Of a stretch of 43,504 bases of DNA, positions 3,131 to 11,906 are shown piece after piece. Within the stretch, counting starts at the first letter, position 1; every line of letters starts with the position of its first letter. The DNA is from a virus. Its lineage: Duplodnaviria > Heunggongvirae > Uroviricota > Caudoviricetes. Location of the stretch: IMG/VR virus record IMGVR_UViG_646862326_000012, positions 1-43,504 of that record; one strand, given 5' to 3'. The notes under the pieces were generated by a model, which searched no databases, was not told the DNA's origin, and saw only the letters and a list, made by a program, of their open reading frames with translations. The position numbers and the translations under genes were made by a program.

Positions 3131-3474
3131 TGTTGACCCTCCTGTGGTTGTGCAGTTGAAAGACTCATGCCCGCGCGTTGTTGCCAGACGACCCAGCCGA
3201 GAGCCATATCCCACGCCATGTACTCGTTATCACCGTTTTTTGCTCTCCGACGATCGACTGTTTTACCGAAACGCTTTTCCATAAATAATTCATAGGCTGC
3301 GCGTTCATCTGGCTCAACTTCCAGAGATGCCAGTGCAATCCGTGCCAGTTCTAAATCATCTTCAAGCTCAGCGCGAATCTCAGCGAATGCACTCTGTGTT
3401 AAGGCGAACTCAATGCTCTGCACTTTATTCCGTGCGCGCTCAAGCAGTGCATGGTAGTTAATTTCGGTTGTCAT
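3127..3474 (-). CDS. Hypothetical early-left protein (115 aa)
   Basis: ORF with AGAGG ribosome-binding site; translationally coupled within the leftward operon. No recognisable motif. Confidence 0.55.
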   Translation of the reverse strand: MTTEINYHALLERARNKVQSIEFALTQSAFAEIRAELEDDLELARIALASLEVEPDERAAYELFMEKRFGKTVDRRRAKNGDNEYMAWDMALGWVVWQQRAGMSLSTAQPQEGQQ

Positions 3475-4349
3475 ACCCCTACCTCTTCGAATTTCAATTC
3501 TAATTGATCACCCCAGATTTCACATGACTCTGAACACGAGCCGGTATCGAATCGCCTGGCCTGTACCATCGCCTGATACAAATTTCTGTAGTCGCTGTTG
3601 GCAGACATTCTGGCAATTCCGTCAAGCGTCAGGTGACCACGGTACATAACGTCTTTACCTGTTCTGCGATGACCATCCCTGACGTGTTTGCCTGTAACCA
3701 GCTCATTAAAAACTCGCATCAGACCAGGTTCGTCTTTACATGCAAGCCCCAGCTTTTGCGTTGACTTTTTGATGCAGAAAACACAGTTCCCGAGATGCTC
3801 CGGGATTTGCAAATCAAAAGGTTGTTTTCGCCACCACCGGATAACATCCGACTTATCAAAATCTGACAGTTCGGCAAGATACCGGACGCCCGATTTCGGT
3901 TTCAGCCTACGGGGTTCGTCTGCACGAATACCCAGCCATGTGATGTAATTACCTCGCCCGAAATGGTTATCGCAGTATTTCGTGAAAGGGATGAGTTTTA
4001 GCCTGTCAGTACAGAACGCGCCGCCGATGTATGGCGTGCCGTACTTTTTAACCATGTCCATAAACGGTTTAAGTACCGGCATTCGCGTCTGAATATCCTT
4101 TGGCTCCCATTCTGTATAACCATTTGGCTGCCCAAGCTCAGGATTGATATCGACCTGCAACACAGTTAGTGGTATGCCCCAGAACTTCACAACCTCCCGA
4201 ATAAAGCGGTATGTCAGCGGATGTTCGCAACCGGTATCCATAAAGATGTAGCAGACGTTATTGCCAGCCTTTCTTTGTTCTTCCATCAGGTGAACAAGAT
4301 ATGCAGATGTTCTCCCGCCGGAAAAACTAACTACATGAGTTATGCACAT
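3471..4349 (-). CDS. PAPS reductase-family PP-loop ATP pyrophosphatase-like protein
   Basis: 292 aa. N-terminal SFSGGRTS matches the PP-loop (SGGxxS) of the PAPS reductase / sulfate adenylyltransferase superfamily. GGAG ribosome-binding site; overlaps the stop of the upstream gene. Confidence 0.75.
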   Translation of the reverse strand: MCITHVVSFSGGRTSAYLVHLMEEQRKAGNNVCYIFMDTGCEHPLTYRFIREVVKFWGIPLTVLQVDINPELGQPNGYTEWEPKDIQTRMPVLKPFMDMVKKYGTPYIGGAFCTDRLKLIPFTKYCDNHFGRGNYITWLGIRADEPRRLKPKSGVRYLAELSDFDKSDVIRWWRKQPFDLQIPEHLGNCVFCIKKSTQKLGLACKDEPGLMRVFNELVTGKHVRDGHRRTGKDVMYRGHLTLDGIARMSANSDYRNLYQAMVQARRFDTGSCSESCEIWGDQLELKFEEVGV

Positions 4350-7001: not shown

Positions 7002-7676
7002 TTAGGCCTTTATTGTGTATCTTCTTGGTTTTCCCGAGAAAATCACTGTACCAATTATAGAGCAATTACCGTTAATCTTAATGTAAGGCTCAGGCCAGTT
7101 TGGGTTTAATGCTTTGAGATAACGCTGTGTTCCATCTTCTATCAACCGCTTGAAGGTGGTTTCGCCTGAATCGTGCATCAATGCAATAACGTCGTCACCG
7201 TGGCAGGCAGGGACTTCAGGATCAACAAAAATCATGTCTCCCGGGCGGTACTCATCAATCATTGAATCACCAATCACCCGCAAGATATAAGTCATTTCGC
7301 CACAGGGTACAGGGCAGGGATAAGTTTCTGCTGTGCTCAAATCAACCTCAGAATAGCCAACTTCTTTCCATGCTCCGGCCTGTACCCATGATATGACAGG
7401 GACTAACGTTATTTGTTTGTTAGTGATTGAAACATCAGGTTTTTTTGTGATGTTCGTGGTCTGGTGTTCTTGATCAAGCCATCCGACAGGCAGGTCGAAA
7501 CATTTTTCGATGTGCCTTGCCATGCTGTCACCGATATTTTTAGTAGCACCATCTCCCATAAACCTGCTGGTCTGGGTTGGCTCGCGATCAATCATGGTGG
7601 CAAAGGAAGAATTCCCGCCAACACCATCTCTCAGTTTTCTGGCGTTAGACCGCCGGATGTCATGGACTGTTTTCAT
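7002..7676 (-). CDS. cI: CI-type prophage repressor (HTH + S24 LexA-like peptidase domain)
   Basis: 224 aa. C-terminal RVIGDSM motif (S24 serine nucleophile context) and an Ala-Gly (QAGAW) candidate autocleavage site. Divergent from the cro-like gene. Confidence 0.9.
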   Translation of the reverse strand: MKTVHDIRRSNARKLRDGVGGNSSFATMIDREPTQTSRFMGDGATKNIGDSMARHIEKCFDLPVGWLDQEHQTTNITKKPDVSITNKQITLVPVISWVQAGAWKEVGYSEVDLSTAETYPCPVPCGEMTYILRVIGDSMIDEYRPGDMIFVDPEVPACHGDDVIALMHDSGETTFKRLIEDGTQRYLKALNPNWPEPYIKINGNCSIIGTVIFSGKPRRYTIKA

Positions 7677-7998: not shown

Positions 7999-8562
7999 AT
8001 GAGGCTAACCGTGGGTAAGCATCACTGGAAAGTAGAAAAACAGCCTGAGTGGTACGTGAAAGCTGTCAGAAAAACTATCGCGGCGTTGCCGGGAGGTTAC
8101 GCTGAAGCTGCTGAGTGGCTGGATGTAACAGAGAACGCTTTATTCAACCGCCTTCGTGCAGATGGCGATCAGATTTTCCCGCTGGGATGGGCAATGATTT
8201 TACAGCGCGCGGCTGGCACTCACTACATTGCGGATGCTGTCGCACAGTCTGCTGGTGGGGTGTTTGTATCGCTTCCTGAACTTGAGGAAGTAGAGAACGC
8301 CGATATAAACCAGCGCCTGCTGGAAGTCATCGAACAGATCGGGAGTTACTCAAAGCAGATTCGTTCGGCAATCGAAGATGGGGTAGTGGAGCCACACGAG
8401 CAGACAGCAATTAATGATGAGTTGTATCTGTCAATTTCGAAGCTCCAGGAGCATGCAGCACTGGTCTACAAAATCTTTTGCGCTCCAGAAAAGAGTGACG
8501 CCCGCGAGTGTGCAGCTCCGGGCGTCGTGGCGTTTTGTGTCTGTGGAGAAACTAACGCATGA
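7999..8562 (+). CDS. CII-like regulatory protein (tentative)
   Basis: 187-aa ORF directly after cro; N-terminal HTH-like stretch. ATGA overlap with the next gene. Confidence 0.45.
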   Translation: MRLTVGKHHWKVEKQPEWYVKAVRKTIAALPGGYAEAAEWLDVTENALFNRLRADGDQIFPLGWAMILQRAAGTHYIADAVAQSAGGVFVSLPELEEVENADINQRLLEVIEQIGSYSKQIRSAIEDGVVEPHEQTAINDELYLSISKLQEHAALVYKIFCAPEKSDARECAAPGVVAFCVCGETNA

Positions 8563-9395
8563 ACAGTTTAACGGCAAATAACCGTTTGTCGCAACAGCTG
8601 GTGGTCAGCGTCGCTGAACACCTGTTGTTACGGCATGAATGCAGATTACCAAATCACATGGCTGTAAGTAACCACAGAGAACTTTACCTGACTGTGGGGG
8701 GCGAGTTGTGCAGGAACTTAACCGCTGGTTTCGTGACGGAAGAGGGCTTTATGTCCATGTTATTCGTTGGGAGCCAGAAACACAGCGCGTTATCTATCTT
8801 CGCAAAGACTACCCGCATGAGTGCTTTAGTCCTTTGTGGAAATTCAGGCGTGATTTTGTTGAGTGTGAAGGACCACCAGCACATTGATTCTGCCATTCCG
8901 GGACGTTACACTGTTCAGGCACCTTATAAAGCGGGTGTCGGGATTGGCGTCCTGGAATTGCATACGGCGACAATTGGCGCGTTAGCGTCTTTTTTGTTGC
9001 TACAACTCAGCTATACCCAAATTATGGTGGGCTGGGTGGGGGCACCGAAAGGTGCGCCGGTTTCCGTATGCGCCGGTTACGCCAACCCTGCTCAGTTCAC
9101 CACCAGCGAAATTGGCGTTTCCGGTGGTGGAAGTTATCCATTGCATACGGAGGCTGCCATCATGGCTACTGTCCCAGCCCTCTCTCGTCTGAATGATGAA
9201 GACTTACATAAACTCAGTTATGTAACAACTGCACTACATGCTCTGCGCAAGGTAACTCTTTCGGATCCGCAGGCGCATCAGGTTTTGGTAGAAACCCTTC
9301 TTAACTTGCAGGCTGAACGTATTCGTCTGGCGGATAAGGCTAATTTTCATATTCACCGTCTCCTGAATATCAGCGGAGGGCATCGTCATGCTTAA
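8559..9395 (+). CDS. Hypothetical protein (278 aa)
   Basis: ORF translationally coupled to both neighbours (ATGA overlap upstream; the next gene's ribosome-binding site lies in its 3' end). No motif recognised; composition is unusual. Confidence 0.4.
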   Translation: MNSLTANNRLSQQLVVSVAEHLLLRHECRLPNHMAVSNHRELYLTVGGELCRNLTAGFVTEEGFMSMLFVGSQKHSALSIFAKTTRMSALVLCGNSGVILLSVKDHQHIDSAIPGRYTVQAPYKAGVGIGVLELHTATIGALASFLLLQLSYTQIMVGWVGAPKGAPVSVCAGYANPAQFTTSEIGVSGGGSYPLHTEAAIMATVPALSRLNDEDLHKLSYVTTALHALRKVTLSDPQAHQVLVETLLNLQAERIRLADKANFHIHRLLNISGGHRHA

Positions 9396-9624
9396 TCCGT
9401 TGATCCTCAATATTTGCCGTTTGCTTCAGCGTAAAAAAACATCAATTCCTACAGTTGGGCAGTGGTACACCACGCCTGCAGGGCATGTTCTACGTGTTAG
9501 CCTGGTTGACCGTGAATGCCAGAAGGTGATTTGTGAACCGCTGGGCCGTAATTACCGCGTCAGTATGCCGCTTATAGCCTTTCGCTCCGGAAAAAACATG
9601 AAGCATCTCGGAGGTGCAGCATGA
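9388..9624 (+). CDS. Hypothetical small protein (78 aa)
   Basis: GGAGGG ribosome-binding site 8 nt upstream; ATGA overlap with the downstream replication gene. Confidence 0.45.
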   Translation: MLNPLILNICRLLQRKKTSIPTVGQWYTTPAGHVLRVSLVDRECQKVICEPLGRNYRVSMPLIAFRSGKNMKHLGGAA

Positions 9625-10439
9625 GTATGGAGCTGATGGTTAAAGCGATGAAAATTCGAGTGGGTAATCCATTGCGAAAACTGGTTCTGATCAAGCTGGC
9701 TGATAATGCCAGCGATCAGGGTGAGTGCTGGCCCAGCTACCAGCATATTGCTGACCAGTGCGAGATTAGCAAACGTTCTGTGATGAATCATATTGCGGCC
9801 CTTTGTGAGTCCGGGCTGGTAAAAAAAGTCACCCGGAAAGGTGAAAAAGGTAACTCAAGTAATATCTATCTCCTTCATCTGGATGGTGCAGGAGATTCAC
9901 TAGGGGGTAGTGCAAATAATTCACTATCTGGTGCAGCAAATTCACTAGGTAGTGCAGGAGTTGCACCAGGGGGTAGTGCAGGAGATTCACCCAGAACCAG
10001 TCACTCTTTTGAACCAGTCAAAGAACCAGTCAATGAACCAATAGCTGTTGGTGCATCAGTTGATGAGCCCGTGCGAGTTCGTTCAAACCGACCGGAATAC
10101 TCTCCGGAGTTTGAGCAGGCATGGCTGGCATATCCCAAACGTGCTGGTGGCAATTCAAAATCTGCAGCCTTCAAAGCCTGGAAAGCCCGTTTGAATGAGG
10201 GAGTAAACCCCGAAACCATGCTGGAAGGTGTGAAACGCTACGCGGGCTGGGTATCTGCGATGGGTAACAGCGGCACACAATTTGTGAAACAGGCTGTCAC
10301 GTTCTTTGGTCCGGATCGTCATTTCGAAGAATTCTGGGAAGTTCCTGCGGTATCTGCAGCCAGACGCGAGGACCCGTACTTCAAAGCCAGTTACGACAAC
10401 GTGGACTACAGCCAGATCCCGGCAGGATTCAGGGGGTGA
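9621..10439 (+). CDS. Replication initiation protein (O-like, N-terminal HTH)
   Basis: 272 aa. N-terminal winged-helix/HTH region (LVLIKLADNASDQGECWPSYQHIADQ...) typical of phage replication-initiator N-domains. Central low-complexity linker encoded by iteron-like DNA repeats. Confidence 0.6.
   Translation: MSMELMVKAMKIRVGNPLRKLVLIKLADNASDQGECWPSYQHIADQCEISKRSVMNHIAALCESGLVKKVTRKGEKGNSSNIYLLHLDGAGDSLGGSANNSLSGAANSLGSAGVAPGGSAGDSPRTSHSFEPVKEPVNEPIAVGASVDEPVRVRSNRPEYSPEFEQAWLAYPKRAGGNSKSAAFKAWKARLNEGVNPETMLEGVKRYAGWVSAMGNSGTQFVKQAVTFFGPDRHFEEFWEVPAVSAARREDPYFKASYDNVDYSQIPAGFRG
9885..10045. repeat. Iteron-like direct repeats inside the O-like gene (candidate ori)
   Basis: About 4 copies of a ~24-bp unit (ATTCACTAGGGGGTAGTGCA-like), followed by 3-4 copies of GAACCAGTCA. 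Arrangement is analogous to lambda ori iterons embedded in gene O. Confidence 0.5.
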
Positions 10440-10441
10440 TC

Positions 10442-10930
10442 ATGAGTCTTTTGAATGAAGTTCAGAAATTCATTGAAGCCCATCCGGGGTGTACTTCCGG
10501 AGACATTGCGGATGCTTTTGCAGGTTACTCACGGCAGCGCGTTCTGCAGTCAGCAAGCAAGTTACGTCAGAGTGGGCGTGTGGCTCACCGTTGTGAAGGA
10601 GATACACGCAGACATTTCCCACGCCTGACTGAGAGAGCGCAGGAGCCGGAACCACAACCAGTTCGTGAAACCAGACCTGTGCGCAATTTCTATGTCGGCA
10701 CTAACGATCCCCGGGTGATTTTGTGCCTGACCCGCCAGGCGGAAGAACTGGAGTCCAGGGGCTTATACCGTCGTGCTGCAACGGTGTGGATGGCGGCATT
10801 CCGTGAAAGCCACTCCCAGCCAGAACGAAACAATTTTCTGGCGCGTCGTGAGCAGTGTTTACGGAAAAGCAGCAAGCGCGCTGTATCGGGTGATGAGTGG
10901 TATCTGTCAGGGAATTACGTGGGGGCTTAA
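10442..10930 (+). CDS. Hypothetical regulator, possibly PerC-family-like C-terminus
   Basis: Start at ATG 10442 with AGGGGG ribosome-binding site. N-terminal winged-helix-like segment; C-terminal LESRGLYRRAATVWMAAF resembles the PerC/Pch family motif as remembered. Weak. Confidence 0.4.
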   Translation: MSLLNEVQKFIEAHPGCTSGDIADAFAGYSRQRVLQSASKLRQSGRVAHRCEGDTRRHFPRLTERAQEPEPQPVRETRPVRNFYVGTNDPRVILCLTRQAEELESRGLYRRAATVWMAAFRESHSQPERNNFLARREQCLRKSSKRAVSGDEWYLSGNYVGA

Positions 10931-11583
10931 TGAGTAATAAATATTGCCAGGAGCTGGTGGAACTGCGGAACAAACCAGCCCATGAACTGAAGGAAGTGGG
11001 TGATCAGTGGCGCACGCCGGACAACATTTTCTGGGGAATTAACACCTTGTTTGGCCCGTTTGTTCGGGATCTGTTTACTGACGGTGATAACGCCAAATGT
11101 GCTGCGTATTACACGGCGGAAGACAACGCGCTGGCGCATGACTGGTCAGAACGTCTTGCGGAGCTTAAAGGTGCTGCCTTTGGTAATCCCCCATACAGCC
11201 GCGCCAGTCAGCATGAGGGGCAATACATCACCGGCATGCGTTACATCATGAAACATGCCAGTGCCATGCGTGATAAAGGTGGGCGCTATGTTTTCCTGAT
11301 CAAAGCTGCCACCAGCGAAGTTTGGTGGCCGGAAGATGCAGACCATATTGCTTTTATTCGCGGGCGTATTGGTTTTGAACTGCCAGCCTGGTTTATCCCG
11401 AAGGACGAGAAGCAGGTGCCGACAGGCGCTTTCTTCGCTGGTGCTATTGCTGTTTTCGACAAGACCTGGAAGGGACCGGCAATCAGCTACATCGGGCGCG
11501 ATGAACTTGAGGCATGTGGTGAGGCCTTTCTGGCGCAGGTTCGCCAGCAGGCGGAAAAACTGGTCAGGGAGATGGCGGCATGA
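10930..11583 (+). CDS. Phage N6-adenine DNA methyltransferase (Dam-like)
   Basis: 217 aa; NPPY catalytic motif (FGNPPYS) diagnostic of N6-adenine/N4-cytosine methyltransferases. TAATG overlap with the upstream gene. Confidence 0.85.
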   Translation: MSNKYCQELVELRNKPAHELKEVGDQWRTPDNIFWGINTLFGPFVRDLFTDGDNAKCAAYYTAEDNALAHDWSERLAELKGAAFGNPPYSRASQHEGQYITGMRYIMKHASAMRDKGGRYVFLIKAATSEVWWPEDADHIAFIRGRIGFELPAWFIPKDEKQVPTGAFFAGAIAVFDKTWKGPAISYIGRDELEACGEAFLAQVRQQAEKLVREMAA

Positions 11584-11906
11584 CGACATTAACTCAATGC
11601 CAGCAGCAGGTGCTGGATATGCTGATTTCTTACCAGAAAGAACGTGGCTTCCCGCCAACCAATCAGGAGGTGGCAACCATGCTGGGATACCGTTCAGTGA
11701 ATGCAGCGGTGGAGCATCTTCGCGCACTGGAGAAAAAAGGCGTCATCACGATAAAGCGTGGCGTGGCCCGGGGGATAACGCTTCATACCGCGGTGAAGGA
11801 CGACGACAGCGAGGCGGTCGGGATTATCCGCTCACTGCTTGCCGGTGAGGAAAACGCAAGGCTGCGTGCAACCCACTGGTTACATGAGAGGGGCCTGAAA
11901 GCATGA
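11580..11906 (+). CDS. LexA N-terminal DNA-binding-domain protein (no peptidase domain)
   Basis: 108 aa. Alignable by eye to the LexA winged-HTH domain (QQQVLDML...GFPPTNQEVATMLGYRSVNAAVEHLRALEKKGVI); ends before any S24 domain. Confidence 0.75.
   Translation: MTTLTQCQQQVLDMLISYQKERGFPPTNQEVATMLGYRSVNAAVEHLRALEKKGVITIKRGVARGITLHTAVKDDDSEAVGIIRSLLAGEENARLRATHWLHERGLKA

Follow-up and report, generated by a model that had tools for sequence, protein, structure and literature searches.

The initiator gene and its repeats

We analysed a 43,504-nt stretch of DNA (IMG/VR record IMGVR_UViG_646862326_000012; hereafter the window), the whole of which is a lambdoid prophage. Its sole recognisable replication gene lies on the plus strand at 9621-10439 in the list of open reading frames (ORFs) and encodes a 272-aa replication initiator. 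The part of this gene that codes for the interdomain linker contains two adjacent families of repeats, and the segment that they span, 9886-10044, is by our sequence analysis probably the replication origin of the phage, a reading to which we assign a probability of about 0.85.

The initiator matches the Pfam helix-turn-helix (HTH) family HTH_36 over aa 17-67 (E=1.8e-11). This is the only Pfam match above the curated cut-off; DnaD_N (24.3 bits for the N-terminal domain, cut-off 27), B-block_TFIIIC and HTH_20 are sub-threshold, and Phage_rep_O gives no match at E<=0.01. The protein also matches PHROG 270, named 'replication initiation protein', with an E-value of 2.9e-87, and separate PHROGs cover its N and C halves; PHROG 26426, 3729 and 1701 (named 'replication protein' and 'DnaD-like helicase loader') match aa 137-272. 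AlphaFold predicts a confident winged helix at aa 1-88, then disorder (aa 91-157), then a small domain of helices that starts at about aa 158. The N-terminal winged-helix DNA-binding domain (the N-domain) is encoded by 9621-9884 on the plus strand (predicted local distance difference test, pLDDT, 80-92) and is modelled as helices (3-11, 17-29, 40-47, 51-64) plus a wing formed by a beta-hairpin (67-85), with the recognition helix, KRSVMNHIAALCES, at about aa 51-64. The C-terminal domain (the C-domain; aa 158-272, helical core about 162-225) is encoded by 10092-10436 on the same strand and is presumed to recruit a helicase loader. A Foldseek search with the full model returned generic winged-helix matches alone, at E of about 1e-2. 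Among these many folds were the DnaD N-domain (2v79) and the N-terminal domain of pSK41 RepA (4pql/4pt7) at E 0.02-0.07, matches too weak to assign membership of either the DnaD or the RepA_N family. Hits to proteinase K in a sequence search of the PDB fell on the low-complexity linker and were set aside as spurious.

Tandem Repeats Finder reports arrays with periods of 24 and 21 at 9886-9990 (scores 72 and 62), and a repeat finder returned the same families. When re-phased, the array resolves into five 15-bp imperfect palindromes of the form GTGCA-N5-T(T/G)CAC, spaced by 24, 21, 21 and 24 bp: iteron 1 at 9886-9900 (GTGCAGGAGATTCAC), iteron 2 at 9910-9924 (GTGCAAATAATTCAC), iteron 3 at 9931-9945 (GTGCAGCAAATTCAC), iteron 4 at 9952-9966 (GTGCAGGAGTTGCAC), which has perfect 5-bp arms and is matched on both strands, and iteron 5 at 9976-9990 (GTGCAGGAGATTCAC again). 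The first-pass annotation of this DNA had described four overlapping units of about 24 bp. The repeats themselves hold up and their count does not: the four copies of ATTCACTAGGGGGTAGTGCA correspond to the junctions at which neighbouring dyads, five in all, meet, and the 20-mer core given there runs from the right arm of a unit into the left arm of its neighbour. In the 43.5-kb window the dyad pattern GTGCANNNNNTKCAC has five matches, all of them in this array, where 0.31 would be expected, and none of 100 shuffles reaches five. Together with the 12-mer repeats that follow them, the dyads occupy residues 89-141 of the initiator, within the predicted disordered linker, which agrees with their earlier placement in the linker-coding part of an HTH replication gene. 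CTA is a rare codon in E. coli; it is used for all three Leu codons within the array and for none of the 13 elsewhere in the gene.

Conservation of the dyads and covariation with the recognition helix

Relatives of the N-domain were drawn from three sources: annotated phages; 80 IMG/VR contigs, whose N-domains are 99-100% identical to that of the window and which served for the study of polymorphism, not of divergence; and 80 gammaproteobacterial prophages from different GTDB species (Pseudomonas, Enterobacter, Aeromonas, Shewanella, Marinomonas, Xenorhabdus and others), with N-domains 66-86% identical. In 69 of the 80 diverse prophages, at least three dyads (mostly four or five, at 21-24 bp spacing) are found within 230 nt after the N-domain, as against one in 1553 background 230-nt segments of the same loci. 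In all ten phage relatives inspected by eye, 3-5 arm5-N5-arm5 dyads likewise follow just past the conserved '...GNSSNxYxL' wing, one every 21-24 bp. Taken over the relatives with a homologous N-domain, the number of dyads at this place is 3-7.

Several patterns across these loci point to the DNA, rather than the encoded peptide, as the object of selection. Successive sites stand in differing reading frames at 45 of the 63 loci with GTG(C/A)A-type sites (for example, with spacings of 23, 22, 21 and 24), and at 26 of the 63 the asymmetric site is present in both orientations; GTGAATCTCCTGCAC, from Pseudomonas prophages, is the exact reverse complement of GTGCAGGAGATTCAC of the window. The sites of this type in the 63 loci encode 122 distinct hexapeptides. 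In a set of 54 haplotypes whose N-domains are identical, polymorphism affects 4 of 75 positions within the dyads and 7 of 30 between them (Fisher p=0.012). The number of iterons ranges from 5 to 7 among the 80 IMG/VR loci read directly, and homologous proteins of 242-302 aa differ within the repeat-encoded linker; such variation in iteron and 12-mer copy number is to be expected of a tolerated linker lying over a repeat array. Selection for a peptide repeat would not give these patterns, and by this sequence evidence selection appears to act on a symmetric DNA site over a tolerant linker. In near-identical prophages of E. coli, Shigella and Salmonella, one to four 12-mer words follow the first, and the gene lengths are 807-861 nt.

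The half-site of the dyads covaries with the recognition helix (aa 50-57 in the numbering of the window), and at least seven helix/half-site pairings were found across about 200 loci. The helix S(K/R)RSV(M/I)NH goes with the half-site GTG(C/A)A, and a similar helix with Arg at position 56, seen in Erwinia, Izhakiella, Vibrio D290, Psychrobacter Y8A and Aliivibrio, goes with GTGAC. The other pairings are SKSAVRNH with TGCCA (Klebsiella RothD, Aggregatibacter S1249), (S/G)RSTVKxH with GGGCA (phi24B), DRSTVR(K/R)H with CTACA (Pseudomonas), TRxTAIxH with GTGTA and SKSTAMRA with GTGTC (mEp554). An Erwinia protein (L145), for instance, has ISKRSVMRHI where the window has ISKRSVMNHI, and its sites read GTGAC-ACAGA-GTCAC. 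Matched divergence of initiator and iterons is known for lambdoid O proteins. This covariation is the strongest non-experimental argument available that the N-domain would read the dyads.

A further near-consensus dyad, GTGAAGGAGATACAC, lies at 10593-10607, about 600 bp to the right of the array and inside the PerC-like gene described below. One of its arms carries a mismatch, the GGAGA centre is unchanged, and it is present in most close relatives and not in Salmonella phage ST64B. It could be a chance occurrence or a remote control site.

A family-wide block of 12-mer words

Iteron 5 directly abuts a block at 9993-10044 with the structure AGAACCAGTCAC-TCTTTT-GAACCAGTCAAA-GAACCAGTCAAT-GAACCAATAG. 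Exact copies of GAACCAGTCA occur at 9994, 10011 and 10023 and nowhere else in the window, where about 0.08 would be expected; a degenerate fourth copy, GAACCAATAG, stands at 10035, and Tandem Repeats Finder reports a period-12 array at 10011-10040 (score 53). The three or four repeats noted in the first-pass annotation after the first array are three exact words and a degenerate one. Judging from its distribution in relatives, this array is not a second type of iteron but a family-wide invariant block. The same word is read in two frames: word 1 as aGA-ACC-AGT-CAc (RTSH), and words 2 and 3 as GAA-CCA-GTC-Aaw (EPVK/N).

In nearly all of the 80 diverse prophages the last iteron directly precedes CCAGAAYCAGTCACTCTYYTGAAYCAGTCAWWGAACC, whatever the iteron type, C-domain or host, and the locus GC of the block-bearing relatives ranges from 36 to 60%. 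An exact 23-nt piece of the block was found in at least 120 IMG/VR contigs; 112 of them extend far enough upstream to show what precedes it, which in 104 is a KLAD(N/Q)A N-domain. The block is common to initiators with at least seven iteron specificities and with many C-domains and loaders (DnaC-like, lambda-P-like or none). In Aliivibrio and Morganella relatives the words are kept with changed spacings and peptides. In the Aliivibrio prophages L154, L167 and L170 the block is rearranged to AGAACCAGTCAT-AGAACCAGTCAAT-TAGAACCAGTAAAA, encodes the peptide RTSHRTSQLEPVK and is followed by a long A-rich run.

Synonymous codons in the block were compared with those of the N-domain in members of the family with under 85% identity in N-domain DNA, by counting identical codons for identical amino acids. 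Synonymous-codon identity is 0.89-0.94 in the block versus 0.39-0.40 in the N-domain (35-41 members), and the highest value in any 12-codon window of the N-domain is 0.46. A first run, on 41 members, placed the block by regular expression, which biases some columns; a second, on 35 members, used a purely positional anchor, and with several anchors misplaced it kept the contrast (0.886 vs 0.391). Third codon positions of the block are almost invariant. The base that usually varies, the Y of the word, stands second in its codon in word 1 (ACC/ATC, Thr/Ile) but first in its codon in word 2 (CCA/TCA, Pro/Ser). Together, the synonymous conservation, the two-frame reading and the linkage to the N-domain in 104 of 112 contigs argue that the block is under DNA-level constraint and is part of the N-domain/iteron module, independent of iteron specificity.

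The block also appears to behave as a junction for module exchange. In the natural chimeras P0061, P0069 and P0072, an N-domain of the phi24B or RothD type, together with its own iteron-encoded peptide, is joined to a C-domain of the window type, and the switch point is the conserved RTSHSFEPVKEP block.

Duplex stability and helicase loading

The nearest-neighbour free-energy profile places the least stable 40-bp duplex near the origin at 9840-9879 (35% GC), directly to the left of iteron 1. At -46.3 kcal/mol this segment reaches only the 96th percentile of instability in the window, in keeping with the earlier remark that an AT-rich element is not obvious, and its role in unwinding is doubtful, since it also encodes the conserved wing. 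A/T-rich runs directly follow the block in several relatives. Judged by eye, the block fits neither the IHF nor the DnaA consensus. A terminator-like hairpin with a T-run lies on the minus strand at 9829-9844, to the left of the iterons within the AT-rich stretch that codes for the wing; it is the only one in the region around the origin, a count at chance level. No sigma-70-like promoter was found in 9300-10700.

By Pfam and PHROG annotation, the early region of the window contains no P, DnaC-like, DnaB-like or primase gene, which bears out and extends to P the first-pass statement that no DnaC/DnaB-like loader is recognisable downstream. Among 74 relatives, the gene after the initiator is DnaC/IstB-like in 28, lambda-P-like in 15 and DnaB-like in one, so that a loader or helicase follows in 44 of the 74. 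The C-domains of the relatives are very diverse. Those of the window type share the motif EFEQAW..YPKRAGGNSK...TQFVKQA.TFFGP..HF, and they are followed by a DnaC-like loader in Aeromonas phage AsXd-1 (which also has a DnaB-like helicase), in Shigella phage 75/02, in Klebsiella ST846-OXA48phi9.2, in Burkholderia DC1 and in prophages of Rahnella, Phytobacter and Kosakonia. From these DnaC-like loaders beside the same C-domain we infer recruitment of the host DnaC-DnaB. The simplest account of the gene neighbourhoods is that the window-type C-domain works with DnaC-DnaB and that the lineage of SfV, ST64B and the Eru6 phages uses the host's. It had been suggested in the first-pass annotation that the initiation mechanism may differ from that of lambda; this stands as far as the missing P gene is concerned, whereas the loaders next to the same C-domain point to the ordinary host DnaC-DnaB route.

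A probable origin within the initiator gene and alternative explanations

The dyads found throughout the family, their covariation with the recognition helix, the conservation at the DNA level and the loader genes in the neighbourhood together favour the proposal, already made in the first-pass annotation, of a probable origin with iterons inside an O-like gene. In the mechanism that we envisage, dimers of the N-terminal winged helix (aa 1-88) would bind the five 15-bp dyads, GTG(C/A)A-N5-T(G/T)CAC, whose spacing of 21-24 bp, about two helical turns, would let the bound dimers form an O-some-like nucleoprotein array. The duplex would then be opened, and the helicase delivered, at the adjacent block of GAACCAGTCA 12-mers instead of at an AT-rich tract. 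The C-terminal domain would recruit the DnaC-DnaB complex, presumably the host's own, as a loader gene is missing from the phage lineage. Early transcripts that run rightward out of the immunity region would pass through the initiator gene and hence through the origin, as in lambda.

The block in particular is proposed as the site of opening and helicase delivery that replaces the AT-rich tract of lambda. We advance only tentatively, as possible rather than probable, the broader idea that it is a portable, sequence-specific 'origin core' of about 36 nt, conserved to nearly every base in prophages from Pseudomonas, Shewanella, Vibrio-related bacteria and Xenorhabdus through E. coli to Aggregatibacter, which sets the site of duplex opening and helicase loading. 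Either the near-invariant stretch of the N-domain (GNPLRKLVLxKLADNAxD...CWPS) or a conserved replication protein of the host might recognise such a core, possibly as single-stranded DNA. If so, it would be a non-AT-rich, sequence-specific unwinding or loading element unlike the AT-rich tract of lambda, and the helix/half-site pairs (e.g., N56R with GTGAC) would amount to a readable recognition code for orthogonal origins.

A number of points weigh against an origin at this place. An AT-rich unwinding element was not found in the window, the GC content to the right of the iterons is 42-50%, and the block region stands merely at the 81st percentile of duplex instability. There is no DnaA box within several kb, the nearest matches to TTATNCACA lying at 4340 and 23149. 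The C-domain has no match in Pfam (E up to 10), in NCBIfam, among PDB sequences or by fold; modelled separately by AlphaFold it is of low confidence (mean pLDDT 55.8), and its best Foldseek match against the PDB has an E-value of 4.7. Hence its role is drawn from the names of the matching PHROGs and the gene neighbourhood, and its partner solely from the gene neighbourhood in relatives. The comparative sets were gathered via N-domain or block patterns and show association within the family, not function. The searchable literature yielded no experimental evidence of binding or of origin function for this initiator family. Plasmid iterons can act purely in control, by handcuffing or autorepression, and binding sites alone are no proof of initiation.

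One alternative is that the repeats bind the initiator and serve control alone (autorepression, a roadblock, or handcuffing for copy or immunity control), with replication starting elsewhere. Control roles of plasmid iterons are general knowledge and have been reviewed (PMC4980987), an AT-rich tract and DnaA boxes are missing beside the repeats, and the further near-consensus site at 10593-10607 would suit a regulatory array. Against this stand the confinement of the full dyad pattern to a single place in the window, the fact that family members keep array and block at precisely this place irrespective of C-domain and loader, and a layout that matches two proven origins within genes, those of lambda and pSK41 (PMC7466680, PMC5703833); we therefore hold a purely regulatory role to be quite improbable. 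More improbable still is the notion that the repeats are a by-product of slippage in a low-complexity linker, with no function as DNA. The segment does encode a Gly/Ser/Ala-rich peptide predicted to be disordered, and its copy number differs between strains, as slippage would have it; yet every unit is palindromic, the 15-mer class is kept across frames, orientations and 122 peptides, the half-site follows the recognition helix, the arms are less polymorphic than the spacers, and the rare CTA is confined to the array. On this sequence evidence the slippage account seems to be already contradicted.

An explanation confined to the GAACCAGTCA block is that it is conserved for the peptide motif RTSHSFEPVNEP (for example, as a partner-binding or degradation signal) or as a recombination junction between N and C modules, and not for opening of the origin. 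The three chimeras, which pass from N to C module exactly at the block, would fit the latter, as would its position at the boundary of one N-domain family and many C-domain types, and the peptide is conserved as well. But selection on the peptide would hardly leave third positions nearly invariant while a second-position (ACC/ATC) and a first-position (CCA/TCA) site vary, nor would it let the variation fall on one and the same base of the word in both frames. The rare codon AGA is the first of the block in 41 of 41 members located by a pattern that itself fixes those three bases, and in 25 of 35 placed by position alone, with several placements off, at locus GC contents that span the range given above. 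The Aliivibrio and Morganella relatives, moreover, keep the words at other spacings and with other peptides, and a recombination junction alone seems too weak a selection to hold 36 nt from Pseudomonas to Aggregatibacter. We accordingly regard this explanation as unlikely and prefer a role of the block in the origin.

Comparison with known replication systems

Lambda iterons show dyad symmetry, with about two helical turns from one to the next; lambda O has an N-terminal DNA-binding and a C-terminal partner-recruiting domain, and early rightward transcription crosses the origin. Lambdoid phages differ in the specificities of iterons and N-domain, the remainder being exchangeable. The lambda origin lies in the middle of the initiator gene O and contains several initiator-binding iterons (PMC7466680). 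The window resembles it in that the repeats lie within the initiator gene, in the stretch that separates its DNA-binding part from its partner-binding part (aa 89-141), and in the presence of at least four dyad iterons at about two-turn spacing (five in the window, at 24, 21, 21 and 24 bp). It differs in that its initiator belongs to HTH_36 and not to Phage_rep_O, in having five 15-bp dyads (5+5+5) where lambda has four iterons and the Shiga toxin (Stx) phages compared (933W and P27) have six, in having conserved 12-bp words of about 45% GC in place of an AT-rich tract, and in the lack of a P gene (Phage_lambda_P) next to the initiator or in the early region. By sequence comparison the initiator appears to be O-like in function and layout only, and not a member of the lambda O family.

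In the Rep protein of pSK41, from the RepA_N systems of Firmicutes plasmids, four Rep boxes lie centrally in rep, a DnaD-like N-terminal winged helix binds them, and the C-terminal domain is host-specific (PMC5703833). The window shares with it the repeats within the initiator gene, and the RepA and DnaD N-domains are among the weak fold matches of its own N-domain. The RepA_N systems, however, belong to Gram-positive plasmids, and no RepA_N family is among the Pfam matches of the window at E<=0.01; furthermore, the C-terminal domain of pSK41 Rep binds the DnaG primase, whereas the window-type neighbourhood points to DnaC-type loaders. In the iteron plasmids RK2 and F, repeated 13-mers in the unwinding elements are bound by Rep in sequence-specific fashion as single-stranded DNA (PMC4081077). 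The GAACCAGTCA 12-mers, as short direct repeats right beside iterons, might be an analogue of these, which we offer as an idea only; the RK2 and F elements are AT-rich and have no sequence similarity to the 12-mers.

Fagerlund et al. 2022 (PMC8951638) defined the Eru6 replication type of Stx-converting phages, with the reference AP012537 and an HTH_36 protein after a Rha/Ash protein. The replication region of the window is near-identical to that of AP012537, with an HTH_36 protein that likewise comes after a Rha/Ash protein, downstream of cI. That paper classifies gene content alone and defines no origin, iterons or mechanism, and the Eru papers and the phi24B genome paper make no mention of iterons or an origin. 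No description of iterons or of the block in the Eru6/SfV phage group was found in the searchable literature; the iteron string and the longer block string are absent from it, and the papers listed for the bare 10-mer GAACCAGTCA are unrelated. The SfV genome paper may nevertheless contain an earlier brief mention of repeats in orf39. The lambda-like layout is ordinary in kind. What goes beyond expectation is a family-wide 12-mer block that is not AT-rich, together with a readable pairing of helix and half-site.

Distribution and genomic setting of the module

The region 9300-10700 is 98-99% identical to Ayreon, Stx2c-converting phages, SfV orf39 (annotated as 'replication protein'), mEp460 and Stx2a_WGPS2 (AP012537); the last of these, the Eru6 reference, matches at 98.3% identity across 88% of the 1.4-kb query. 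Database records give E. coli as the isolation host of the phages Ayreon (K12), mEp460 and PhiR47_1 (ECOR13), which have this single-gene replication module. The annotations of these three give no further replication gene, and that of PhiR47_1 lists 'DNA replication protein O' alone for replication.

The analysis places the probable origin of a widespread module: the 90%-identity cluster of the initiator (P0010) has 2852 member sequences, and the module is found in serotype-converting Shigella phages of the SfV type, Salmonella phage ST64B and the Eru6 Stx2-converting phages. How they replicate, and with it the dosage of the toxin gene after induction, has so far been catalogued by gene content alone. 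The model predicts five binding sites, one residue that should switch specificity, and loss of origin function when the block is recoded synonymously. An annotation rule is suggested as well: in HTH_36 'O-like' genes of gammaproteobacterial prophages, the origin would be taken as the dyad array together with the AGAAYCAGTCAC...GAAYCAGTCA that comes after it. Compatible replicon parts could be drawn from the several initiator/iteron specificities that occur naturally.

The window begins within the integrase gene (ORF 1-1224), which is followed by a 417-aa protein (PHROG 30399) and a minus-strand PAPS-reductase-like gene (region 1-2650 and 3471-4349). The cI gene is at 7002-7676 on the minus strand. 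The early genes of the plus strand start with a CII-like gene at 7999-8562, followed on that strand by an Ash-domain protein at 8559-9395, whose counterpart in the close relative PhiR47_1 bears the annotation Rha protein, and a 78-aa ORF (PHROG 1153) at 9388-9624. Downstream of the initiator the order is PerC-like protein, Dam, a protein with the LexA DNA-binding domain, RusA and, later, Q. The gene next after the initiator (10436-10930) encodes a 164-aa protein with a PerC domain and a weak N-terminal match to a MarR-family PHROG; together with the 78-aa ORF on the other side, it is conserved along with the initiator. The Dam-like methylase at 10897-11583 also matched a 'PAPS reductase' PHROG, via a fused family. 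The gene at 11580-11906 encodes a 108-aa protein that consists almost entirely of a LexA DNA-binding domain (Pfam LexA_DNA_bind, aa 1-65), with no peptidase family among its Pfam matches, and may be a phage-encoded factor that binds SOS boxes.

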